Source: a virus. From it: a stretch of 64,000 nucleotides of DNA. Shown here one piece after another: positions 9,697 to 64,000 of this stretch; within the stretch, counting starts at the first letter, position 1, and each line of letters starts with the position of its first letter. Both the position numbers and the translations under genes were made by a program. The notes beneath the pieces are model-generated. The model worked only from the letters and a program-made list of their open reading frames with translations. It ran no database searches and had not been told where the DNA came from. Location of the stretch: the IMG/VR virus record IMGVR_UViG_3300042301_002170; one strand, 5' to 3'.

Positions 9697-10741
9697 CAAA
9701 CGGTATTTAGATATACTAAAACAAATAGATAAAGAACATAATGAATTTGGTGATTTACATCGTAACTCCAAAACATTGATTATTGATGGTCTTAATACCT
9801 TCATTCGTTCTTGGTCAACTGCTCCAAATCTTAACGATAATGGAGACCACATCGGAGGCATAGTCGGTACTTTAAAAAGTATCGGCTACGCAATCCGTAC
9901 AATCAATCCTACCCGATGTATCATTGTATTTGATGGTAAAGGTGGTAACAAAAGCAGACAAGATATATACTCTGGTTACAAAGCAGATAGAGGCAAGAAC
10001 AAAATCAAAATGAGATTGAATCGTGCTGCATCTGTTGAAATGAATCAAGAAGAAGAAAGTGAATCAATGAGACGACAAATGTTCGGATTGGGTGAATTAC
10101 TGTCTTCTTTACCAGTATCCATTATGATTTATGATGGAATCGAAGCTGATGATGTTATTGCTTACATCACTACTCAATTAAAGAAAGAAGATGAAAAGGT
10201 TGTGATAATGAGTTCCGATAAAGATTTCTTACAATTGGTAAATAAAGATGTGAGTGTTTATTCACCATCTAAAAAGAAAATCTACAATATACCAGAAGTG
10301 GTAGAAGAGTTCGGAATTCATCCACACAACTTTGTCAATTTCAGAATGATTGATGGAGATAAATCCGATAATTTAAATGGTTTACCTGGATTAGGATTAA
10401 AAACAATTATAAAAAACTTTCCAATATTAACTGAAGAAACGGTACAAACTACTGAATCTTTGTTAGAATATATCAAAGAGCAACCAAAGAAAACAAAAGC
10501 TTACGATTTATTTCAAAATAACTTGGAAATATTAAAAAGAAATCGTAAATTGATGCAATTATCAGAACCAGAATTTAGTGGTACTATTCGTATGAAGATT
10601 ATAGATAGATACAATGAAGATACTGTTAAGTTTGATAAGCAAGGTTTCTTAAAATTGGGATTAAGGCATAAAGTATTAGACGCATTCCCTAACGTAACTG
10701 ATTGGTTACAAAGTACATTTTTACACATTTCAAAATTTTAA
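9683..10741 (+). CDS. 5'-3' exonuclease / flap endonuclease (T4 RNase H, PolI N-domain type)
   Basis: IIDGLN, VFDGKGG, YKADR, EADDVIA, SSDKDFLQL, GDKSDNLNGLPGLGLKT. Confidence 0.9.
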   Translation: MSQINKRYLDILKQIDKEHNEFGDLHRNSKTLIIDGLNTFIRSWSTAPNLNDNGDHIGGIVGTLKSIGYAIRTINPTRCIIVFDGKGGNKSRQDIYSGYKADRGKNKIKMRLNRAASVEMNQEEESESMRRQMFGLGELLSSLPVSIMIYDGIEADDVIAYITTQLKKEDEKVVIMSSDKDFLQLVNKDVSVYSPSKKKIYNIPEVVEEFGIHPHNFVNFRMIDGDKSDNLNGLPGLGLKTIIKNFPILTEETVQTTESLLEYIKEQPKKTKAYDLFQNNLEILKRNRKLMQLSEPEFSGTIRMKIIDRYNEDTVKFDKQGFLKLGLRHKVLDAFPNVTDWLQSTFLHISKF

Positions 10742-10746
10742 AACAA

Positions 10747-11055
10747 ATGGCAGAAGAAAGATTAGCAAAACCGTTAGGAGATAGAGTTCTTTTAACAGAA
10801 TTAGAATCAGAGGTTTCACAGACAGCAGGTGGTATTATTATACCTGATTCGGTTAAAAACGAAGATATTAAAAGAGCAAAAGTAGAATCAGTAGGACCTG
10901 GTATTTACACACAATCTGGAACATTGATTCCAATGAATTTAGAAGTAGGTGATGAAGTAATCATTCCACCATACCATCAAGGATTGGAGATTAAAGTAGG
11001 TGGTAACAAATACATCTTACTTAGAGAATCAGAAATTTTAATGGTAGTTAAATAA
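10747..11055 (+). CDS. groES: Co-chaperonin GroES
   Basis: KPLGDRVLL, TAGGIIIPD, VGPG, ILLRESEIL. Confidence 0.92.
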   Translation: MAEERLAKPLGDRVLLTELESEVSQTAGGIIIPDSVKNEDIKRAKVESVGPGIYTQSGTLIPMNLEVGDEVIIPPYHQGLEIKVGGNKYILLRESEILMVVK

Positions 11056-11077
11056 TTTTAAATTAAACACGGAATAG

Positions 11078-11296
11078 ATGAAGTGCATTAAAAATAAAGA
11101 AGGAGAAATCCGCAGAGTAAAAGAAGAAGAAGCAGATTTAAAAGTATTACAATACGGTTGGGTGTTCGTTCCTAAATCAGAATGGAAAGCACTTCGTAAA
11201 CCGACTAACCCCCGACCAAGCTCCGACCAAGCTACCGACGTAGCTGAGTTATCGATTGAGGAAAAAAAATTAGCAAGAAAGAAAAAAACTAAATAA
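11078..11296 (+). CDS. Small basic hypothetical protein
   Basis: 72 aa; stop overlaps the next start. Confidence 0.65.
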   Translation: MKCIKNKEGEIRRVKEEEADLKVLQYGWVFVPKSEWKALRKPTNPRPSSDQATDVAELSIEEKKLARKKKTK

Positions 11297-12654
11297 TGGA
11301 AGCAGTAGATACATTGGTAAAGTATGGACAATCGTATCAATCTAAAGTAGTTGCTTCTCTTATATCAGATGTAAAGTTTTTAGAGCAGGTAAGTGAAATC
11401 ACCAAAGCTGCATTCTTTGAATCCGAAGCAAATAAATGGATTATAAACGAAGTAATTGATTACTTTGGTGAATATCGTGCAGTACCAACAATGGAGGTTT
11501 TCAAAATCAAAGTTGGTACAGTTGAGGATAAAGGATTGAAGCAGACCATTGTTGAGCAACTGAAAAGTGTGTATCAACAAATGGAGGCAAATGATTTGCC
11601 CTATGTTAAAAACGAATATCTTACATTTGCTAAAAATCAAAAAGTTAAAGATGCTCTTTTAAAATCTGTAGAGTTATTAAAGTTAGGTCAATACGATAAA
11701 ATTATTGACACTATGACAGCAGCATCCAAAGTAGGTGTTGAATCTGATTTGGGTTTGGATTATATTGAAGAATTCGAATCCATTATGGAAGATGTTAAAA
11801 GAGATTCAGTACCTACTGGATGGGATGTTATCGATGAACTAATGGATGGTGGTTTAGGGCCAGGTGAATTAGGAGTGGTCATGGCTCCGTCTGGTATAGG
11901 AAAGAGTTGGTTCTTATCAAAGATAGCTTGTTCGGCATTACAAAGAGGAATCGATGTATTACATTATACATTAGAATTATCCGAAAGTTATGTAGGACAA
12001 AGATATACCACTATCCTTACAAACATCCAAACATCCGAACATAAGGATAGAAAAGATGAGGTAATCAGAAAAATTAAAGCAGTTCCTGGTAGAGTTCGTA
12101 TTAAATACTACCCACCACAATTTGCATCAGCTAAAACCTTATCTGCCCACGTTGAGAAGATGAGACAAATTGGTTTTAATCCACAACTTATTATTATTGA
12201 TTACGCAGATTTATTAAAATCTGGAAATGGTAGTAGAGATGGGTTGTATGCAGAGTTGGGTGGAATCTATGAGGAGTTGCGAGGATTGAGTGGTATTGCT
12301 AAAATACCGATATGGACTGCAACACAAACTAACAGAGCAGCTATTGACCACGAGGTTATCCAAGCCGATTCGGTTGGAGATTCGTATAAGAAAGTTCAAA
12401 CGGCTGATTTCATTATGAGTGTTAGTAGAAAAACAAAGGATAAGTTATCAAACACAGGTCGTATTCACATCGTTAAGAATCGATTTGGACCTGATGGATT
12501 AACGTTTCCTGCGAAGATTGATACATTCACAGGTGTTATGGATGTGTTTGCAGCTTCATCGGCAGATGGTATGGCATCTACCAGAGATAGTAAAGATGGA
12601 GAAGGATTAGAGAAGAAATTGCTCCATAAAAAGTATGTTGATAATATGGGATAA
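11296..12654 (+). CDS. gp41: DnaB/gp41-like replicative helicase
   Basis: MAPSGIGKS, IIDYADLL, WTATQTNR, IVKNRFG. Confidence 0.92.
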   Translation: MEAVDTLVKYGQSYQSKVVASLISDVKFLEQVSEITKAAFFESEANKWIINEVIDYFGEYRAVPTMEVFKIKVGTVEDKGLKQTIVEQLKSVYQQMEANDLPYVKNEYLTFAKNQKVKDALLKSVELLKLGQYDKIIDTMTAASKVGVESDLGLDYIEEFESIMEDVKRDSVPTGWDVIDELMDGGLGPGELGVVMAPSGIGKSWFLSKIACSALQRGIDVLHYTLELSESYVGQRYTTILTNIQTSEHKDRKDEVIRKIKAVPGRVRIKYYPPQFASAKTLSAHVEKMRQIGFNPQLIIIDYADLLKSGNGSRDGLYAELGGIYEELRGLSGIAKIPIWTATQTNRAAIDHEVIQADSVGDSYKKVQTADFIMSVSRKTKDKLSNTGRIHIVKNRFGPDGLTFPAKIDTFTGVMDVFAASSADGMASTRDSKDGEGLEKKLLHKKYVDNMG

Positions 12655-55368: not shown

Positions 55369-56025
55369 ATGACTAATAAATTGAATGTAGGTGATTTACT
55401 TACAAAAGGGTTAATATATTTGGTATCCTTTTGGATTTGTGTTGCTCTTATAACGCAAGGATATTTCATTTATTTAAAATTTAGTGGTAATTCAGAAACT
55501 GCGAAAGAGTTAGTAGATAAATTCCAAACAAAATTTGATGGTAATTACAAAAGTGACCCAAACAACATATTCTATAACGGAAAACAACAGTTATACTATA
55601 TGGAAGAAAACGAAGTGTGGGTTGATGGTGTAACAAATCAAGTTAAAATTGGTAAGTTAGCAGGTAATAGAAATTTAGAATTTGGAGTTAGAAATATATT
55701 AGAAGAATACATCCAAGAAGCAGGATATGCTCTTTCTGATAATGCAGGTAAAAAAATAAAAGTAGAAATCGTTTATTTAGATGTATTAACTACTAAAACA
55801 AACATTTCGGTATTTCACAGAGATAATGCCGAGGTAGTTATCCGATTAAAGGGAATTCTTTATAAGGATGGCAAAAAAGTCAAAGAGGTTATGGTTGAAG
55901 AATCTTCATCAGAAATCTCGATGTCTACCTTAATAGTAGATGGTGGCGGTAAGTTCAACCAAACTTCTTTAAGTAATGCACTTAAAAAAGGTTGCGAACA
56001 AATCATCACTAAACTATTAGGATAA
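55369..56025 (+). CDS. Membrane-anchored protein with a CsgG/TolB-N-like alpha/beta domain
   Basis: N-terminal TM; C-terminal FNQTSLSNALKKGCEQII parallels FNQSTIGTSTKKALDIACARIL in CDS 61397. Confidence 0.45.
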   Translation: MTNKLNVGDLLTKGLIYLVSFWICVALITQGYFIYLKFSGNSETAKELVDKFQTKFDGNYKSDPNNIFYNGKQQLYYMEENEVWVDGVTNQVKIGKLAGNRNLEFGVRNILEEYIQEAGYALSDNAGKKIKVEIVYLDVLTTKTNISVFHRDNAEVVIRLKGILYKDGKKVKEVMVEESSSEISMSTLIVDGGGKFNQTSLSNALKKGCEQIITKLLG

Positions 56026-56029
56026 AACT

Positions 56030-57655
56030 ATGAAAAAATTCTTATTAATTCTATTACTTTCTGTATTAGGATTCACGTCTTACGGACAACTTATTATTAA
56101 TCAAGAAATTGTAAACTCAAAACCTTATAGAGTTGGAGATACTCTAACTATGAGATACAATATCATTAAAGGAACTACGAACCCTAGATTCCTTTGGATG
56201 CGTTATCAATACTCAAACAAACACTTACAAAAATTAGGTCAAACTGTATTCTCACAAGGACAAACTGCACAAAACTTTGAAGCAGCTTGGCCAAATTATA
56301 CGTTTGGTCAAAACCCAATAATTGGAGTTGGTGAATTGGATAAACAATATGCTTCAACCCCTTGGAACTATACTGCAAACAATGATTGGATAGTAAAGCA
56401 ATTTACAACACAGAGAGCAGATGCAGTAATTGATGGATTGTGGGCAACTGAAAAGTATATCTTATTAGAAAATACATCTTATCAAGCAATACACAAATTG
56501 GATTTAGCAACCGCAACTGGAACAAATGATTTACCAATTACACCGATTGGTTCTCAAGTTCTTCAATTATCATTTGCTCCTGGAGATGTAAAATATGTTT
56601 CGGCATTTAGAGTAAAGGTTGGCTATCCATCCGGATTTAACCCTACATCATTATCTGTTTTAATCCAACCATTGAATACAGATGGAACTACTAATTTTAC
56701 TGCTCCACAAATAGCAAAGAAAGCATTAAACTCAGCAGGAATTGCAGATTTTGAACAATTTAACATTGGTGATAAGTTTGGAGTATATATTGTTCCAACT
56801 ACAGGAGCAGATTACCTAAACAATGTAGTAACTGTTACAGATGCTTATAGAGCATTCTTAGCAGTAACTGATGTTGGGTTAGGTGGTACATCATCTACAT
56901 TTCAATACCCTGCAATCGAAAAGGTAATTGGTAATGTAACAATTGGTGATGGTGATTTTAATACAAACGATGCTTATTATTTATTTGCACACATTTTAGG
57001 ACAAGATGTTGCTTCAAAGGCAAATATAACAAGACAAGCGGCAAATCCATTACAATTTATATCGGTAAAACAATCGGCATTTCCAAACTTTGCAGCTGCA
57101 GCAACTAACAATTCTGTAACCATTACTTTAGCTAATCAAACAGAATTATTCTCTTACGCATTTAGTGGTGATTTGGATTTCTCTCACTCATCTAACCCTG
57201 GTAACCCAATAACGGCAAATAGTGTAGGTGGACAAGGAACAATGAATAGAACGATAGCTAACGCAGGTATCTACGCAAATCAAGTTACTAAAACTGCAAC
57301 TTTAAGTTTATCATCTAAAATTGAAAACAACAAAGTTATATTAAATGGTAACTTAACACAAGAAGGATTGGCAGGTTTGGAAGTTATTTTGAAATACGAT
57401 GACTCTAAATTAACTTTGGATGGTATTGTATTTGATGCCGGTTCAACTGTAACTAACTTCTCAACTAACAAAGATGGTAGATTAACATTTGGTTCTATGG
57501 ACCAAATTAAAACTGGTAGAATTAAAACTGGTACACCATACAAATTAACTTTTACATCAAATGTTCCTCTAACAAATACTGCGGGTTTATTCTATACTGA
57601 ATTGGCAGATGCAGTTGATGGAAAAGGAAATAAGATTGGATTAAATGTAGAGTAA
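56030..57655 (+). CDS. Secreted protein with cohesin-like and dockerin-like modules
   Basis: SPI signal ending SYG/Q; VGDTLTM..YQYS..L; VTVTDAY..IGNVTIGDGDFNTNDAYYL; C-terminal LAGLEVILKYDDSKL..LTFGS. Confidence 0.6.
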   Translation: MKKFLLILLLSVLGFTSYGQLIINQEIVNSKPYRVGDTLTMRYNIIKGTTNPRFLWMRYQYSNKHLQKLGQTVFSQGQTAQNFEAAWPNYTFGQNPIIGVGELDKQYASTPWNYTANNDWIVKQFTTQRADAVIDGLWATEKYILLENTSYQAIHKLDLATATGTNDLPITPIGSQVLQLSFAPGDVKYVSAFRVKVGYPSGFNPTSLSVLIQPLNTDGTTNFTAPQIAKKALNSAGIADFEQFNIGDKFGVYIVPTTGADYLNNVVTVTDAYRAFLAVTDVGLGGTSSTFQYPAIEKVIGNVTIGDGDFNTNDAYYLFAHILGQDVASKANITRQAANPLQFISVKQSAFPNFAAAATNNSVTITLANQTELFSYAFSGDLDFSHSSNPGNPITANSVGGQGTMNRTIANAGIYANQVTKTATLSLSSKIENNKVILNGNLTQEGLAGLEVILKYDDSKLTLDGIVFDAGSTVTNFSTNKDGRLTFGSMDQIKTGRIKTGTPYKLTFTSNVPLTNTAGLFYTELADAVDGKGNKIGLNVE

Positions 57656-59589
57656 TGAAAAAACTGCTTGTTGTAATAATAATATTATTATCCAGTAGTA
57701 TATCCATAGCACAATCCATTACACAACCTGCCGCTAGAAAGTTTGAATTAAACGTAAGTGGGCAGGCGTGTAGTGGATTTGTTTTGAATGGATTTACTTC
57801 TACTGATATTTTATTGGCATCAATCGGTTTTATTAATCCACCAGCAGGTACAACATTTAATCTAACCACAACAACCGGATTAACTCCAGCATCTGGTTTT
57901 ACTTTAAGTGGTAATAAAAGTAAATTAGTTTTTACAGGTACAATGGCAAACATAAACAATGCATTGGCAACCTTAAAAATCAATACAGGTGCAACTGCAG
58001 GTAGTGTTCAAGTATCAGTATCTGCAACTATAAATCCAACCGGATTTTATTACAACCCAATAAATGGACACTTTTACAAACCTGTAACTCCCGGAAATAG
58101 TTATACGGGTGCAAGAGCCGCATCGTTACTAACAACATTCAAAGGACAAACAGGATATTTGGTAACTATTACTTCTGCCGATGAAAATTCTTTTATATTT
58201 GTTAATGTTCCTCAAGCTAATATATGGTTTGCGGCAACGGATGAAGTTAAAGATGGAACTTGGGTAATTGATGCTGGACCTGAAAAGGGAACGATAATGA
58301 AAACATCAAATGGACAATTTACAGGAAACGTTTCGGGTGTGTATAATAACTGGGCACAAGGTGAACCAAATGGTGTAAATGGTAGTGAAAACTATGCGGT
58401 AACAAATTGGAACGGACAATCAACATGGAATGACTTATCAAACAATTGGACTAATCCATACATAATTGAATATGGAACTTGGACTAATCCTGATTCACAA
58501 ACCTTTACCGATTTTTATTCAGCAAATGTAATAAACCCCATAGATGTTCCATCATCAAAAGTTAATTTTTATTTTGGTGGTAATATAAACCCATCACAAT
58601 GGTCTGTAAAAGCATATACTGCAAATGGTGTAACTCCTGTTAGCACAACTAATGGTTTAACTTTGGGTGCAAATGGTAGTGTGGTTAATACAACGGATTT
58701 TGTTAAATCTAAAACTGATATGGTACTATATTTATCGAAACTCCCATCTGCCACTTTAACAAGCCTATATGGAAGTGTATTAACTGTTGGTGATGCGTAT
58801 TTGGCATTTCAAGAGTTATCTGATAGAGGATTGACCGGAACTGAAAGTAAAGCATTTACAAGTGGAGTTCAATTTTTAAACGGAGATGTGGATGGTAACA
58901 ATGTATTTAACGAAATAGATTCCTACAAAATATTACAACACGTTGTAGGTAGTACACCAATTGTTTCTACTTGGAGTGAAAGTAATTTATTTAGATTTGT
59001 AAAAAAATCTACATTTGATGGTATAACCAAAGCAAATTGGGCAACAACAAATACACCATATTCAGCAATTTATCCTTTGGCAGTTAATGCAACTATAAAT
59101 GATTATGTGTACGATGTGGTAGTAGCACCAAAGGGTGATGTAAATCTTTCACATACAATAGCACAAAATACACAAGCTACTGCAAGTACAAATCGTACAA
59201 TGAATTTGGTTACACCGATGGAGGTTTCTACATATATTTCAAGTGAAATTGTTGATGGTAAGGTGGTAGTATCTATAAAAGTTAATACATTAGGACAGTT
59301 GTTAAAAGCAATTCAGTTAAAGTTAAACTATGATAGTGATATTTTAAAATATGAAAGTACCCAATACACAACTTCAGGTAATCCTTTGAATTTTTCAAAT
59401 GATATTGGAAACTTTATAAATTTTGGTTCTTTAATTTACAATGGAACTGGATTACTAAACGATAATACAGAATACAAATTGATATTTACACCAAAAGAAA
59501 CTATAACTAATACAATTGGTTTGACATCGATTGAAGGAGTAGACGCTATAAATGCAGGTGCTTCAACTCTTAAAATTAAAAACTTATAA
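57655..59589 (+). CDS. Secreted protein with C-type lectin, dockerin-like and cohesin-like modules
   Basis: SPI signal ending SIA/Q; NGHFY..GYLVTITS.DEN..YNNWAQGEPN..ENY..WNDL; GDVDGNNVFNEIDSYKILQHVVG; AIQLKLNYDSDILKY. Confidence 0.7.
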   Translation: MKKLLVVIIILLSSSISIAQSITQPAARKFELNVSGQACSGFVLNGFTSTDILLASIGFINPPAGTTFNLTTTTGLTPASGFTLSGNKSKLVFTGTMANINNALATLKINTGATAGSVQVSVSATINPTGFYYNPINGHFYKPVTPGNSYTGARAASLLTTFKGQTGYLVTITSADENSFIFVNVPQANIWFAATDEVKDGTWVIDAGPEKGTIMKTSNGQFTGNVSGVYNNWAQGEPNGVNGSENYAVTNWNGQSTWNDLSNNWTNPYIIEYGTWTNPDSQTFTDFYSANVINPIDVPSSKVNFYFGGNINPSQWSVKAYTANGVTPVSTTNGLTLGANGSVVNTTDFVKSKTDMVLYLSKLPSATLTSLYGSVLTVGDAYLAFQELSDRGLTGTESKAFTSGVQFLNGDVDGNNVFNEIDSYKILQHVVGSTPIVSTWSESNLFRFVKKSTFDGITKANWATTNTPYSAIYPLAVNATINDYVYDVVVAPKGDVNLSHTIAQNTQATASTNRTMNLVTPMEVSTYISSEIVDGKVVVSIKVNTLGQLLKAIQLKLNYDSDILKYESTQYTTSGNPLNFSNDIGNFINFGSLIYNGTGLLNDNTEYKLIFTPKETITNTIGLTSIEGVDAINAGASTLKIKNL

Positions 59590-59933
59590 TGAAACGTGTT
59601 AAAATTATAATTCTGTGTTGTGTGTTTTCTATAATATCGTGTCAAAAAGAAGACATTGTAGAACCACAAACGATTGATATTTTCAAAGTAGAACAATCCA
59701 CCTTATCAAACAAAAGTGAAATTAGTTTTAATGTAGAGACAGAGGGGGTATATATTATAACAATTATAGATAAAAATACCAACCAAGTTTTAAGTAGAGA
59801 GAAAATAAAATGTATTATAGGTAAAAATAAAATAAAGATTTATACGAAATCGTTACAAAGTAGATATTTATATTTGTTATTGGAAGATGTTACTAAAAAA
59901 GAAATAGGAAAAACAACTATCATAACACAATGA
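59589..59933 (+). CDS. Lipoprotein with a T9SS-CTD-like Ig domain
   Basis: Lipobox IISC followed by QKED; ISFNV..EGVYIITIID..GKNKIKI. Confidence 0.55.
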   Translation: MKRVKIIILCCVFSIISCQKEDIVEPQTIDIFKVEQSTLSNKSEISFNVETEGVYIITIIDKNTNQVLSREKIKCIIGKNKIKIYTKSLQSRYLYLLLEDVTKKEIGKTTIITQ

Positions 59934-60301
59934 AAAAAATAATTTTAGGATTAGCAATAATCGCAACCTTAGTAAGTTGCCAAAATGAAGAAGCATTATT
60001 ACCAACTCCAACAGAAGTAACTGAAAAATTACAAATAGTTGGAAATATGGGAATTAAAGTAGAAACACCATTTGTAAAAGAAGAAGTTGCTATGAATGTA
60101 AAAGCAGAAACTGCTGGAACATATGTAGTAAAAATATTAAACATAGCGAATAAATCGGTATCAAAAGAAGAGGTAACGATAAAAGCAGGAGATAATCTAT
60201 TAAAGATTTACGCAAATGCTTTACCATCTTCGGCATACAGAATTGGTTTATTTGATATGCAAGGAAATTTATTAGGAATTACAGATTTTAACAAATTATA
60301 A
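59930..60301 (+). CDS. Lipoprotein with a T9SS-CTD-like Ig domain
   Basis: Lipobox LVSC followed by QNEE; AGTYVVKILNI..KAGDN..I..LPSSAY.I.L.D..G. Confidence 0.6.
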   Translation: MKKIILGLAIIATLVSCQNEEALLPTPTEVTEKLQIVGNMGIKVETPFVKEEVAMNVKAETAGTYVVKILNIANKSVSKEEVTIKAGDNLLKIYANALPSSAYRIGLFDMQGNLLGITDFNKL

Positions 60302-60314
60302 AATAAAACAAAAA

Positions 60315-60638
60315 ATGGCAGAAGAAACAGAAAACTCAGGTGGGGGTTCATTGAAAAGTATTTTAATTGGACTTGCTAGTACAATCGCATTGGGAGTTGG
60401 TGGTTACGCAACCAAACAACTAACAGGTGAAGGAGATGAACCAGCGGCAGCAGTATCAGCACCCGCACCGGTAATCAACATCACTAATTCTAACCAACAA
60501 GCTCAACAACAGGCAGCAGGTGGTAAGACGGTAATCATCAAAGAAAAAACAGTTCAAGGAGCAGCACAACCTGCACCAGCACCTAAACCTAAGAAAAAGG
60601 AAGGTGATGAATTTAAGGAAGAAAAACCTCAATGGTAA
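60315..60638 (+). CDS. Membrane-anchored protein with a Pro/Gln/Ala-rich disordered tail
   Basis: ILIGLASTIALGVGGYA TM helix. Confidence 0.65.
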   Translation: MAEETENSGGGSLKSILIGLASTIALGVGGYATKQLTGEGDEPAAAVSAPAPVINITNSNQQAQQQAAGGKTVIIKEKTVQGAAQPAPAPKPKKKEGDEFKEEKPQW

Positions 60639-60644
60639 TATAAT

Positions 60645-60992
60645 ATGGAACAACAAACTCCATCGGGATTTAAGGATTTATTAAACCAAATGATGAAAAG
60701 AAGGTGGTTAATGACATTAATTGTCTTAATTACTTTTATGTTTACTACATTTGGAATTCTTATTTCTATACACGCAGATACTGTTGTTGGACAAGAATGG
60801 AAAGAATTATTACTTTTATTATTAGGAGCATTTATAGGCTCTTATGGTAAAATTATAGATTATTGGTTTTCAGATACCGACAAAGATAAGATGTTGGTTC
60901 AAAAAATGGATGAAGAAGATGGTGTATCTCTTTCAAATACAGGTGGTGGAGCACCGACAGATGATAAAAATATACATCACAATATAGATTAG
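60645..60992 (+). CDS. Two-TM membrane protein
   Basis: Two hydrophobic helices; YWFSDTDKD. Confidence 0.65.
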   Translation: MEQQTPSGFKDLLNQMMKRRWLMTLIVLITFMFTTFGILISIHADTVVGQEWKELLLLLLGAFIGSYGKIIDYWFSDTDKDKMLVQKMDEEDGVSLSNTGGGAPTDDKNIHHNID

Positions 60993-61001
60993 AATAAGTT
61001 A

Positions 61002-61011
61002 CATAGTTATT
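61002..61011 (+). promoter_or_regulatory. Class-B promoter motif
   Basis: CATAGTTATT 20 nt upstream of ATG 61032. Confidence 0.35.
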
Positions 61012-61031
61012 AACATTTTAAACAAACAATT

Positions 61032-61331
61032 ATGGGATTTATTTCAGAATTATTCAATGATGACAACAACATAAACGAAAAATCGGTTGTTGGATTCGCA
61101 TCATTTGCAGTTATGGTATTAGCTATAACTGTAGATTTGGTAACCGGTTGGTTAGGTAAAGAATTACTTATCAACGAGTATATTTTTAATGGTTTCTTAA
61201 CAATTACATTAGGTTCATTTGGTATTGCATCAGTTGATAAATTTGTAAATAAGAAAGCAGAAAATGATAAACTAGCTCATTTGGATAGCATCCAACCCGA
61301 ACCGATTAAGGAAGAGGAAGAATTAGGATAG
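61032..61331 (+). CDS. Two-TM membrane protein (holin-like size)
   Basis: Two TM helices and an acidic C-terminus. Confidence 0.6.
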   Translation: MGFISELFNDDNNINEKSVVGFASFAVMVLAITVDLVTGWLGKELLINEYIFNGFLTITLGSFGIASVDKFVNKKAENDKLAHLDSIQPEPIKEEEELG

Positions 61332-61336
61332 TAATT

Positions 61337-61364
61337 AAAGGGAGATTTATTCTCCCTTTTTTTT
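61337..61364 (+). terminator. Intrinsic terminator
   Basis: AAAGGGAGA-TTTAT-TCTCCCTTT followed by a T run. Confidence 0.8.
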
Positions 61365-61373
61365 ATACTTATA
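61364..61373 (+). promoter_or_regulatory. Class-B promoter motif
   Basis: TATACTTATA 23 nt upstream of ATG 61397. Confidence 0.5.
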
Positions 61374-61396
61374 GGTAAACCAAAACTATATTATGT

Positions 61397-62116
61397 ATGA
61401 AAAATTTATTGCTATTATTAAGTTTATGTTCGTTAAGCAGTGTTGCAGTAGGACAAACGGTAGGAACAACAAAAACTGAAAACTACAAAGCATCATTTGA
61501 AACGAAGGTGGACATTAGTGAATTGATGGATTATGATGGTCCAACTATTCCAGTACAAATCTTAAAATGTGGAATAAGTGATGAAATTTTGGAACAGTAT
61601 CCGGAACTTAAAGAAAAGAAGGTGGGCTTGGGTGTTGCTAATATATCTATGGAATACCTTGAAAATCTCAATCGTTTTACTTTTACTGAGGATAAGACAG
61701 AATTAAAGAATAGAATGGTTGCCCAATTCAAAGCATCTCAATCTGGTATATCACAAGATAAATTAGATGGTAGAGGTAAGATTAGATTGGCACACTATTT
61801 CGTAACGATTGAGGTATATGATTTTTCAGTATCGGAAGATGAGACAGTAAATCTAAAAGATGGAGTTAAAAACAAAATGGTAACTCGTTTAGGTTTGCAA
61901 GTTAGATTCACAGATGCTGAAACAGGTGAAGTATTTGGGGCATCTGGTTTAGGTGAAGCAACTACAACTCGTGAATTATCTTTATTATCAGATGCAACCG
62001 TAGATGAGGTTAAATTTAATCAATCTACAATTGGAACATCAACAAAGAAAGCATTGGATATTGCTTGTGCCCGTATTCTATTAAGAATGATTAAGAAGGG
62101 AAAATTTCAAAAATAA
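61397..62116 (+). CDS. Secreted CsgG/HfaB-like protein
   Basis: SPI signal ending AVG/Q; GLGVANI..L.N.NRF....K.EL; GRGKI..AHYFV...VYDF; LGLQVRFTDAETGEV. Confidence 0.6.
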   Translation: MKNLLLLLSLCSLSSVAVGQTVGTTKTENYKASFETKVDISELMDYDGPTIPVQILKCGISDEILEQYPELKEKKVGLGVANISMEYLENLNRFTFTEDKTELKNRMVAQFKASQSGISQDKLDGRGKIRLAHYFVTIEVYDFSVSEDETVNLKDGVKNKMVTRLGLQVRFTDAETGEVFGASGLGEATTTRELSLLSDATVDEVKFNQSTIGTSTKKALDIACARILLRMIKKGKFQK

Positions 62117-62122
62117 TAAATT

Positions 62123-62863
62123 ATGACAAAAAAGGAAGTATTATATAATGCTAGTTTAGCAGTATTAGCTTATTCTAAACAAGAAGAAATTAAGTGGGAT
62201 GAATACGGATTAGAATTAGTTAAGTGGATTGAAAATAAAAAATCAGACACACAAGGATTTGTAGCAACAAAAGATAAATCAATCTATGTTGTATGGAGAG
62301 GTAGTGAATCAAAGAAGGATTTCCAAAACGATGCTTCAATTGATAAAGTACCATTCTTAAACGAAGGTGAAAAAGTACATATTGGATTTAAATATTGTTG
62401 GGAATCGGTAGTGGGTGATGCATATGACGCAATTGATACTGCAATAGAAAACCTACAAGGTAAAACTAAAGATATTGTAGTTTGTGGACATAGTTTGGGT
62501 GGGGCAGTTGCAACATTATATGCACACTCAATAAAGAAACACTATCCTGATTATAATATCAAATCTGTAACAATCGGAAGTCCAAGAGTTGGTAATAAAA
62601 CATTCAAAGATAATTATGATTTATCTGATATAGATACTTTACGAATCGTTCATAATAACGATTTAGTAACTCACACACCATACATTAAATTTTACCACGT
62701 AAACTATCAGTTACGATTGGATAATAATGGTAATATATTAAAGAGAGATAAATCATTAGATGCATTGTGGTTGTACATAAAAGCATTATTTTCAGGTAAA
62801 AATATCAAAGACCATATGTGCGATGGGTATATGGAAGCTCTACAAAATTGGGCAAAGAAGTAA
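62123..62863 (+). CDS. Class 3 lipase
   Basis: YVVWRGS, VHIGF, CGHSLGGAVA, TIGSPRVGN, RIVHNNDLV..P, DH. Confidence 0.9.
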   Translation: MTKKEVLYNASLAVLAYSKQEEIKWDEYGLELVKWIENKKSDTQGFVATKDKSIYVVWRGSESKKDFQNDASIDKVPFLNEGEKVHIGFKYCWESVVGDAYDAIDTAIENLQGKTKDIVVCGHSLGGAVATLYAHSIKKHYPDYNIKSVTIGSPRVGNKTFKDNYDLSDIDTLRIVHNNDLVTHTPYIKFYHVNYQLRLDNNGNILKRDKSLDALWLYIKALFSGKNIKDHMCDGYMEALQNWAKK

Positions 62864-62865
62864 TC

Positions 62866-62887
62866 TTAACAATTTGGTAACATTGAT
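62866..62887 (+). promoter_or_regulatory. Pho-box-like 11-nt-period direct repeat
   Basis: TTAACAATTTG GTAACATTGAT; cores at 62866 and 62877. Confidence 0.45.
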
Positions 62888-62911
62888 AATAGTATTTTAA
62901 TAAGATAGTTT

Positions 62912-62921
62912 CCTACTTATT
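62912..62921 (+). promoter_or_regulatory. Class-B promoter motif (variant)
   Basis: CCTACTTATT 19 nt upstream of ATG 62941. Confidence 0.35.
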
Positions 62922-62940
62922 GTAAACCAAAAATACAATA

Positions 62941-64000
62941 ATGAGGAAACTATTTTTATTATCATTTCTGTTACTAACACATCAATTATTATCACAAACC
63001 TTATCAGGTAAAGTAAAATCAAACAAAGAAGAACTTATAGGTGTAACCGTTTGGATTACCAATAATACAACGAATAAGAAAGTAGGTACAACATCCGATA
63101 TAGATTCCAAATATCAATTTTCCAATATACAAAAAGGAAATTATTCAGTAAAAGCATCATTTGTTGGATATAAAGAGTACAATAAACAAATACAAATTGA
63201 TACAACAACTAATTTAGATATTCAATTAGAAGAGGATACTAAATTATTGCAAGAAGTTGTGGTAAAGCAAGTAGCAAAGAAAGAAACTGCAACTGCACTT
63301 ATCAACACACTTAAAGCATCTTACATTGTAGCAGATGGGTTATCAATTGAATCCATAAAGAAAACACCAGATAGAACTGTTGGAGATGCACTTAAAAGAG
63401 TAAGTGGTGTAACAATCCAAAACGATAAGTTTGTTTTAGTTAGAGGTTTAGCTGATAGATACAACTCGGCTCTACTAAACAAATCAATCTTACCATCAAC
63501 CGAACCCGATAGAAGGGCATTCTCATTTGATATTATCCCAACATCACTTATAGATAATATTATCATCAACAAAGGAGCATCGGCAAACCTACCGGGTGAT
63601 TTCGCAGGAGGTTTAGTACAAATAACAACAAAAGAAGTTAGTGGTGATTTCTTAAATGTATCATTGGGAGGAAGTTGGGGTTCATTATCAACTGGACAGA
63701 ATTTTAGATTGGTAGACCCTATACAATTCCCATCAACATTTCCATCAACAAACACATATAGGATTGCTGGATTAGGTGATAGGAGAGCATACACTAAACT
63801 AATAGGTTCTCCACAATCCGAAGAGTTTTCATCTATTCCAAACTTAAATGGTAACTTATCATTTGGTGTTGTAAAAAACAAATGGAACATCTTATTCAGT
63901 TCAACTGCAAGAAACACATACTCTGCTAACACAACTGAAAGAATAGATTATCAATCATCAACGGAATTAGCATACAATTACAAAGACTTAAATTACTCAA
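62941..64000 (+). CDS. TonB-dependent receptor, 3'-partial (not in the ORF track)
   Basis: Open to the window end (353 codons). SPI signal MRKLFLLSFLLLTHQLLS/Q; CarboxypepD_reg-like ..SFVGY..L.EVVV; plug DALKRVSGVT..VRGLADRYN..LPSTEPDRRAFSFDIIP..I.I.KG..PGDFAGGLVQITTK. Confidence 0.9.
   Translation, partial: MRKLFLLSFLLLTHQLLSQTLSGKVKSNKEELIGVTVWITNNTTNKKVGTTSDIDSKYQFSNIQKGNYSVKASFVGYKEYNKQIQIDTTTNLDIQLEEDTKLLQEVVVKQVAKKETATALINTLKASYIVADGLSIESIKKTPDRTVGDALKRVSGVTIQNDKFVLVRGLADRYNSALLNKSILPSTEPDRRAFSFDIIPTSLIDNIIINKGASANLPGDFAGGLVQITTKEVSGDFLNVSLGGSWGSLSTGQNFRLVDPIQFPSTFPSTNTYRIAGLGDRRAYTKLIGSPQSEEFSSIPNLNGNLSFGVVKNKWNILFSSTARNTYSANTTERIDYQSSTELAYNYKDLNYS

Follow-up and report, generated by a model that had tools for sequence, protein, structure and literature searches.

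TonB-dependent transporter and beta-helix lipoprotein genes of large freshwater phages, a putative phosphorus-uptake pair preceded by a host-type Pho-box-like repeat

What would a phage gain from an outer-membrane transporter? The question is raised by the last 1,060 bases of a viral DNA stretch of 64,000 nucleotides (hereafter the window, meaning the whole stretch that was analysed), where the frame of a TonB-dependent transporter (TBDT) stays open until the window limit cuts it off, with no stop codon. The frame and its parts are placed as follows.

62941 to 63999, plus strand: 5' part of the TBDT gene, a single open frame of 353 codons, open at its 3' end (ORF listing)
62941 to 62997, plus strand: signal peptide, residues 1-19, read directly from the translation, with cleavage predicted before Q/T
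63001 to 63264, plus strand: N-terminal CarboxypepD_reg-like beta-sandwich, residues 21-108 (Pfam PF13715 and PF13620)
63250 to 63267, plus strand: TonB-box-like motif QEVVVK, residues 104-109, seen in the sequence between the N-terminal domain and the plug
63340 to 63612, plus strand: plug domain, residues 134-224 (Pfam PF07715)
63649 to 63999, plus strand: first strands of a 22-strand barrel, residues ~237-353, placed from the model of a relative (P0001) and cut by the window end

What this frame encodes is the N-terminal portion of a TonB-dependent transporter that derives from a host. The signal peptide, MRKLFLLSFLLLTHQLLSQ followed by TLSG, was read from the frame with no dedicated predictor. 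In Pfam, the N-terminal domain matched PF13715 (CarbopepD_reg_2) with an E-value of 9.3e-17, above the cut-off, as well as PF13620 with an E-value of 1.9e-13. The plug matched PF07715 with an E-value of 4e-9 (37.4 bits, the cut-off being 23.9) and is the most conserved stretch in the homologue alignments. Bacteroidota transporters carry a similar TonB box between the N-terminal domain and the plug. In the alignments of phage and cellular homologues, V106 and V108 of QEVVVK are invariant or nearly so, and the same stretch is disordered in the AlphaFold model of P0001 (pLDDT below 50 at 105-112).

Since the window holds the first 353 codons only, the end of the barrel, the next gene (referred to below as the lid gene) and the genes further downstream are known from relatives. 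Scanning IMG/VR with an exact 36-mer and under protein guidance yielded 23 related loci, carried by contigs that reach 207 kb; neither IMG/VR nor the JGI metagenomes contained a 35-mer specific to the window. The Lake Mendota time series seems to be the origin of many related contigs and of many Aquirufa bins. In most of the related phage loci showing the whole gene, the transporter is ~825-833 aa long. The closest full-length phage copies, of 827 aa, share 88-93% identity with the window fragment, and the relatives' gene continues for ~474 codons past the point where the window ends, with a C-terminal part that belongs to the barrel family PF14905 (E 1e-22). The full-length transporter of P0001 was modelled with AlphaFold (pLDDT 86.4, pTM 0.77). 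A helix at residues 2-15 had low pLDDT and strands were found at 21-86, and in the predicted order the beta-sandwich is joined to the plug by a linker, disordered where the TonB-box-like motif lies, after which the barrel runs from residue 237 to 826. A Foldseek search with this model retrieved the solved TBDTs PhuR, FepA, FecA and BtuB, all four at probability 1.00 and with E-values from 6e-25, the best, for PhuR, to 1e-19. The relatives end in SLTLNYNL, with leucine last and tyrosine at -3, and lack the terminal aromatic residue expected of a barrel-assembly signal. The Aquirufa consensus conserves the same ending, which makes it a subfamily trait and not damage.

The DNA around the gene is that of a phage. 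All substantial ORFs of the window lie on the plus strand, and PHROG and Pfam matches identified genes for a T4-type family B DNA polymerase, UvsX and DnaB, along with both RNR subunits, gp32, clamp loader, dUTPase, GroEL and Cpn10. PhoH is encoded as well (E 4.6e-64). By its DNA polymerase, the nearest isolate is Microcystis phage Mel-JY01 at 49.7% identity, followed by T4-like cyanophages at ~32%, and within the window phage genes for exported and surface proteins form a block ahead of the TBDT gene. In relatives' contigs of 111-148 kb, the transporter and lid genes sit mid-contig with same-strand genes on both sides. Most of the flanking genes have no known family, and tail-lysin-like and M15 endolysin-like proteins are found among them.

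When the ORFs of all related loci were clustered, the TBDT-lid core proved constant and its flanks fell into five or more different contexts, across which the phage copies of the pair are 63-100% identical. The ratio dN/dS (Nei-Gojobori) was 0.08-0.17 for the transporter and 0.08-0.22 for the lipoprotein among phage copies, and 0.14-0.23 for the window fragment against its relatives, while the base composition of the pair is phage-like (GC3 ~0.2). The pair has thus been kept for long by these phages under purifying selection as a functional part, the function itself being an inference. It is scarce among the phage records of GenBank: 5 of 50,697 matched the transporter and 3 of 50,697 the lid, all at less than 50% identity, and no isolate was among them.

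An initial annotation, made without database searches, had proposed a phage-encoded TonB-dependent receptor composed of a signal peptide, a CarboxypepD_reg-like domain, a plug and the start of a barrel. The composition held in the frame and in Pfam, and the identity held through the domains, the relatives and the models. Two outcomes had been named that would have refuted it, namely that the contig switches to host chromosome at this point or that the barrel is truncated downstream. Neither was met, as the relatives continue with phage genes and the barrel is complete in them according to PF14905, the model and Foldseek.

The second gene of the pair encodes 400 aa and directly follows the transporter gene in 21 of the 21 phage loci that show both. 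In one of these loci (L018), its start overlaps the TBDT stop by 4 nt, and translational coupling of the two genes is inferred for this phage group. The product is a lipoprotein, with MKKLLVLFASLTIFGC preceding SKD and with the lipobox FGC. It had no match in the local Pfam, NCBIfam and PHROG libraries, its precomputed family label is PF28492, and a PDB sequence search returned nothing for either the transporter or the lid. The lid was modelled as a right-handed parallel beta-helix (pLDDT 90.1, pTM 0.88). Against 48,161 PDB representatives, VIA-align ranked AlgG (Z 23.1), AlgE4 (Z 23.0) and NosD (Z 22.9) as the nearest structural neighbours of this model, followed by PL6 lyases and tailspikes; Foldseek gave weak beta-helix matches only, with E-values of 7.5e-3 or worse. 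For the predicted structure, these matches establish the fold, a pectin-lyase-like beta-helix, and not the function. The initial annotation had suggested looking for a SusD-like partner. A SusD-type partner was rejected, since no match to PF07980, PF12741, PF12771 or PF14322 was obtained and a beta-helix is predicted; the partner found in the relatives is the beta-helix lid lipoprotein.

The phage transporter is clearly of cellular origin. Its closest cellular counterpart, together with that of the lid, is found in Aquirufa, a freshwater genus of Cytophagales, with 70% identity over the full length of the transporter and 78% for the lid. In A. antheringensis, the transporter and lid genes come first, then an alkaline phosphatase superfamily gene that matched Metalloenzyme and Phosphodiest in Pfam, then the gene of a PHO4 phosphate transporter. 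The pair is widespread beyond this genus, as lid homologues were present in 197 of 301 sampled Bacteroidota genomes, and the lid gene came directly after a TBDT homologue, on the same strand, in all 19 of the diverse Bacteroidota loci that were fetched.

Two types of the pair exist in Aquirufa. Among 64 species genomes, 12 had a short, phage-like lid, 41 a longer native one and 11 no match, and none had more than one lid match. Identity is 77-80% for the short type and 46-50% for the native type. Among 121 sampled genomes of the family, the short type occurred only in the Aquirufa genome on which the search was centred (G001), and the other genomes had transporters of 930-980 aa with 31-44% identity. 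Aligned with the long type, the short transporter is missing ~68 residues, distributed over eight short stretches of the barrel portion, and the short-type lid is 40-200 residues shorter than the long-type one. At one and the same site, two Aquirufa species with flanking proteins of 89-98% identity differ in the pair they carry, which is a native one of 945 and 596 aa plus two small ORFs in one case and a short one of 846 and 402 aa in the other. This is a site-specific xenologous replacement, the direction of which is unresolved. The Aquirufa short type is nested among phage lineages in the transporter tree, in which phage monophyly was not rejected by the AU test (p 0.0996), and in the lid tree the phage and the Aquirufa short type are reciprocally monophyletic. 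GC3 did not discriminate between directions either, since native pairs, too, are richer in AT than their surroundings.

Two elements lie upstream of the phage gene or across its start.

62866 to 62882, plus strand: Pho-box-like direct repeat TTAACA-atttgg-TAACA with an 11-bp period, 59-75 nt before the start codon
62902 to 62956, plus strand: RNA hairpin enclosing the start codon and codons 2-4 (dG -20.6 kcal/mol, z -7.8)

The repeat is the only match in the 64-kb window, and with a chance mean of 0.35 it is not significant on its own. Divergent phage contigs have the same repeat ahead of the transporter, including those with another gene upstream. In its strict form, the motif was found in 7 of 11 phage TBDT upstream regions versus 6 of 277 upstream regions of other phage ORFs (Fisher p 1.7e-8). 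Phage copies have two to three TAACA-N6 repeats versus three to six before the orthologues of Aquirufa and other Bacteroidota; the A. antheringensis pair has three or four TAACA motifs with the 11-bp period. When periodic repeats were counted within 150 nt upstream of cellular genes, three or more TAACA-like repeats preceded 24 of 39 transporter orthologues versus 32 of 480 other ORFs (Fisher p 3e-16), and many of these 32 are PHO4 or phosphatase-like genes. With one mismatch allowed, no more than two loci of the 2.5-Mb Aquirufa genome bear the triple TAACA-N6 repeat, one being the TBDT-lid operon and the other lying ~60 nt upstream of a second PHO4 gene. Because the repeat is enriched before transporter orthologues and also found before PHO4 and phosphatase-like genes, it is very likely the Pho box of these bacteria, the binding of PhoB being inferred. 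That phage copies retain a host-type Pho-box-like repeat upstream is shown for the motif; its recognition by PhoB is, here too, an inference.

The neighbours of the pair point the same way. Among 110 neighbour proteins from the 19 Bacteroidota loci, Metallophos proteins and PstCA-type permeases were each found five times, PstS-type binding proteins and OmpR/PhoB-type regulators three times each, and PHO4, PhoU_div and histidine kinases twice each. Regulator pairs lie beside 3 of the 19 loci and had PhoB and PhoR among their top NCBIfam matches, below the cut-offs. No CAZyme family was present among the 25 most frequent neighbour families of the pair.

The initial annotation had linked the receptor to phosphorus, citing PhoH, RNR and a Pho-box-like site. 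This link held and was strengthened by the Aquirufa operon, in which a Pho box is followed by the pair, a phosphatase-like gene and PHO4. The phoH and RNR genes are indeed both in the window, the window repeat is backed by its enrichment across relatives, and a phosphatase-like gene, a kind of partner that had been proposed for searching, is found in the Aquirufa operon. The guess that organic phosphorus or nucleotides are the substrate is not settled, polyphosphate and phosphate being open as well.

On balance, the evidence leans towards the TBDT-lid pair of this large freshwater phage being a set of auxiliary genes for phosphorus uptake controlled by host PhoB, a reading in which substrate, expression and benefit are all inferred. 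In this scenario, PhoB of a phosphate-starved Aquirufa or close relative would bind the TAACA-N6 repeats of the phage and turn the pair on. The host machinery would then put the barrel in the outer membrane and export the lipoprotein to the cell surface, and host TonB-ExbBD would power periplasmic import of a phosphorus-bearing substrate whose identity is open. Host phosphatase and PHO4 or Pst transporters would bring the phosphate to the cytoplasm, where it may supply nucleotides for copying the large phage genome.

Several points count against this uptake reading or limit it. Assembly of outer-membrane transporters is slow compared with many lytic cycles. The start-codon hairpin could possibly limit translation in the subgroup that has it: it also exists in two related loci (L018 and L012), where the inner stem is different but compensated, and other phage subgroups and hosts show it weakly or not at all. 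No consensus fold emerged for the 5' regions in a structure alignment, in which divergent subgroups misalign, and a terminator scan found none. Finally, the uptake reading rests on inference from sequence, predicted structure, context and literature on other organisms, and for phage copies neither expression nor binding nor uptake data back it.

The alternative that survives best is receptor replacement, already raised in the initial annotation as a decoy or replacement receptor and not excluded here, even if it appears unlikely. TonB-dependent transporters are classic phage receptors. According to this explanation, a loop-trimmed importer is installed in the host, or shed on vesicles, so as to block or divert phages (superinfection exclusion), and uptake is secondary. 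The native long importer would then be the phage receptor, and competing phages or the phage's own progeny would be diverted. In its favour, the phage and Aquirufa short transporter is trimmed by the ~68 residues described above, whether in loops or strands being undetermined, and its lid is shorter. Receptor-driven selection could also cause the swap between short and native pairs seen in 12 of 64 Aquirufa species, and the block of exported and surface proteins before the gene would suit such a role. On the contrary, the plug, the TonB-box-like motif and the lid are kept under purifying selection, whereas a mere decoy needs none of them, and the retained Pho-box-like repeat is not accounted for. 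Moreover, the short type heads the phosphatase-PHO4 operon in the Aquirufa species that bear it, and it therefore works there as an importer.

Another explanation, likewise improbable but not ruled out, is that the pair imports a nutrient devoid of phosphorus, such as a glycan fragment, a metal chelate or a cofactor, and that the phosphate context is a regulatory coincidence. In support of it, the best structural neighbours of the lid are polysaccharide epimerases, polysaccharide lyases and tailspikes (Z ~23). The best NCBIfam match of the transporter is TIGR01782, below the cut-off, a subfamily that includes carbohydrate importers, and no family member has a demonstrated substrate. Against it, phosphate-linked neighbours recur over the 19 distant Bacteroidota loci, from whose most frequent neighbour families CAZymes are absent, and the TAACA-N6 repeat is common to the pair and PHO4 genes. 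In addition, the pair of homologous type in F. johnsoniae answers phosphate depletion and is repressed under nitrogen or iron limitation (PMC8115612).

The weakest explanation, that host DNA was wrongly joined to a phage contig or that the gene is a useless, neutral passenger, could invoke the cellular origin of the gene and its place at the extreme end of the window, but it is very unlikely and contradicted by the mid-contig position between phage-type genes in contigs of 111-148 kb, by the five or more phage contexts, by the phage-like GC3 of ~0.2 and by dN/dS of 0.08-0.23; host contamination of the contig was rejected on the same ground, that relatives carry the pair among phage genes.

To our knowledge, phage auxiliary genes for phosphate do not reach beyond the periplasm and cytoplasm; they are pstS, phoA and phoH, mostly in cyanophages. 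If the phosphorus-uptake reading is true, the idea of phage phosphate genes extends both to freshwater Bacteroidota with a heterotrophic way of life and to the outer membrane, with a complete TonB-powered importer and its surface partner retaining the host phosphate switch in a phage. The pair is also a natural handle on an uncharacterised TBDT-lid family present in about two-thirds of the sampled Bacteroidota genomes, and the exchange of native and phage-type pairs at one site in Aquirufa offers a clean case of nutrient-uptake genes passing between phage and host. A bolder reading, which is no more than possible, is that the cassette is a module traded in both directions: large phages have the trimmed importer and lid, and this trimmed form has taken the place of the native pair, at one chromosomal site, in about one fifth of Aquirufa species. 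Should the native importer be a phage receptor, the phage pair would be both a nutrient-uptake gene set and a receptor-replacement device, and the Pho regulon of the hosts would be undergoing remodelling by phages.

Among known systems, SusC/SusD pairs, including the phosphate-induced PusCD, resemble the phage pair by a TonB-dependent barrel, a CarboxypepD_reg-like domain and a downstream surface lipoprotein. Here, however, the partner is a predicted beta-helix instead of a SusD fold, and no SusC-specific family was matched.

In cyanophages, the auxiliary genes pstS and phoA are controlled by the host PhoBR system. They share with the present pair the status of a host-derived Pho-regulon gene in a large T4-like phage, with a Pho box and with phoH in the genome. 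They differ in that a periplasmic binding protein or phosphatase is made in cyanobacteria, whereas a two-part TonB-powered outer-membrane importer of Bacteroidota is involved here, and in that regulation of the present pair is inferred from a DNA motif only. As for phage-encoded TBDTs as auxiliary genes, no description of a TBDT-lid pair was found in the literature searched.

The nearest likeness is with cellular pairs. In F. johnsoniae, Fjoh_0545 is a TBDT with PF13715, PF07715 and PF14905, and Fjoh_0546 is a lipoprotein named FII with a pectin-lyase fold; together they form the cluster PUSIV, which adjoins phoBR (Lidbury et al. 2020, PMC8115612). Their log2 fold changes were 8.0 and 9.9 on phosphate depletion only, and loci of this type were repressed when nitrogen or iron was limiting (PMC8115612). 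The phage pair has the same three transporter Pfam families, a beta-helix lipoprotein next to them and an association with the Pho regulon, and it differs by being phage-encoded. BT4055/BT4056 were described as a TBDT and a putative non-SusD lid, neighbours in 621 genera; BT4056 shares 40% identity with Fjoh_0546 and is a relative of Caulobacter ElpS, and no substrate has been shown for any member of this family (Price, 10.1101/2023.03.17.533168). ElpS itself is a surface lipoprotein made under phosphate starvation, with an adjacent TBDT (PMC2996285). In these systems, as in the phages, a TBDT and a beta-helix lipoprotein are adjacent, conserved and on the same strand; on the other hand, those papers describe no phage copies, and most cellular versions exceed the phage pair in length (~910-950 + 440-600 aa versus 827 + 400 aa). 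By analogy, with no direct alignment, it is likely that the phage pair belongs with the Fjoh_0545/0546, BT4055/BT4056 and ElpS type, because architecture, fold, adjacency, gene context and the shared repeat all agree.

The same chromosomal site in close Aquirufa species holds either the native, longer pair of receptor and lid genes (locus L096) or the short, phage-like pair (locus L027), as is also seen across loci L093-L102. The proteins flanking the swapped site are 89-98% identical between species, and the short type occurs in 12 of the 64 Aquirufa species. As for the TAACA-N6 direct repeats found upstream of the receptor genes, the Aquirufa antheringensis genome contains a sole further site with three or more of them:

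L073:7726-7763, minus strand: three or more TAACA-N6 repeats
L073:6207-7664, minus strand: downstream gene, a second PHO4-family phosphate transporter

Because these repeats precede the second PHO4-family gene, by about 60 nt, the reading of the motif as a Pho box is supported.

In the window, the receptor is preceded by a series of phage genes whose products are exported or sit in membranes, including two paralogous large secreted proteins, one of them with a weak C-type-lectin match, as well as two small lipoproteins. The run ends with a class 3 lipase in which a signal peptide was not obvious.

Window 55369-62863: run of genes for exported and membrane proteins
Window 62123-62863: class 3 lipase, final gene of the run (Pfam E 2e-29)

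A strong RNA hairpin covers the receptor start codon and codons 2-4, and equivalents occur in two related phages.

Window 62902-62956, plus strand: start-codon hairpin
L018:9960-10016: equivalent hairpin
L012:9913-9968: equivalent hairpin

In these three sequences, dG ranges from -20.6 to -26.2 kcal/mol and z from -7.5 to -8.8, and between subgroups the sequence of the inner stem changes while its pairing is preserved. The hairpin is weak or missing in the Aquirufa copies and in other phage subgroups. It might act as a gate on translation or lend stability to the 5' end.

Receptor and lid trees conflict for some phages: the receptor of phage locus L012 clusters with that of L008 and its lid with that of L014, which points to recombination within the cassette among phages. 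In three divergent phage loci (L019, L021 and L023) the receptor match begins only at residues 96-101, and in these proteins a different N-terminal region appears to replace the CarboxypepD_reg-like domain.

Distant homologues of the receptor and the lipoprotein (28% and 36% identity, respectively) were found in L113, an uncultured megaphage record of 634,780 bp and 29.7% GC (GenBank LR745206.1), in which the lipoprotein lies upstream of the receptor.

L113:7455-10088 and about 10003-11300, both minus strand: homologue pair

No open frame is listed for this lipoprotein under table 11, so a different genetic code is conceivable. Here a pair of this type appears to have been captured independently.

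Some related phages have two added genes directly 3' of the lid gene, as in phage locus L002.

L002:1340-2119 and L002:532-1242, both minus strand: added genes

One is a GT2/Glyco_transf_21-like glycosyltransferase and the other a Metallophos phosphoesterase whose top NCBIfam match is LpxH-like. Both also occur in L003, L020, L022 and L024; they are not present in L018, L013 and others, and the window's own stretch 3' of the receptor is not visible. Under phosphate starvation, the PlcP and glycosyltransferase system swaps out phospholipids. The phage glycosyltransferase and Metallophos pair resembles this system.
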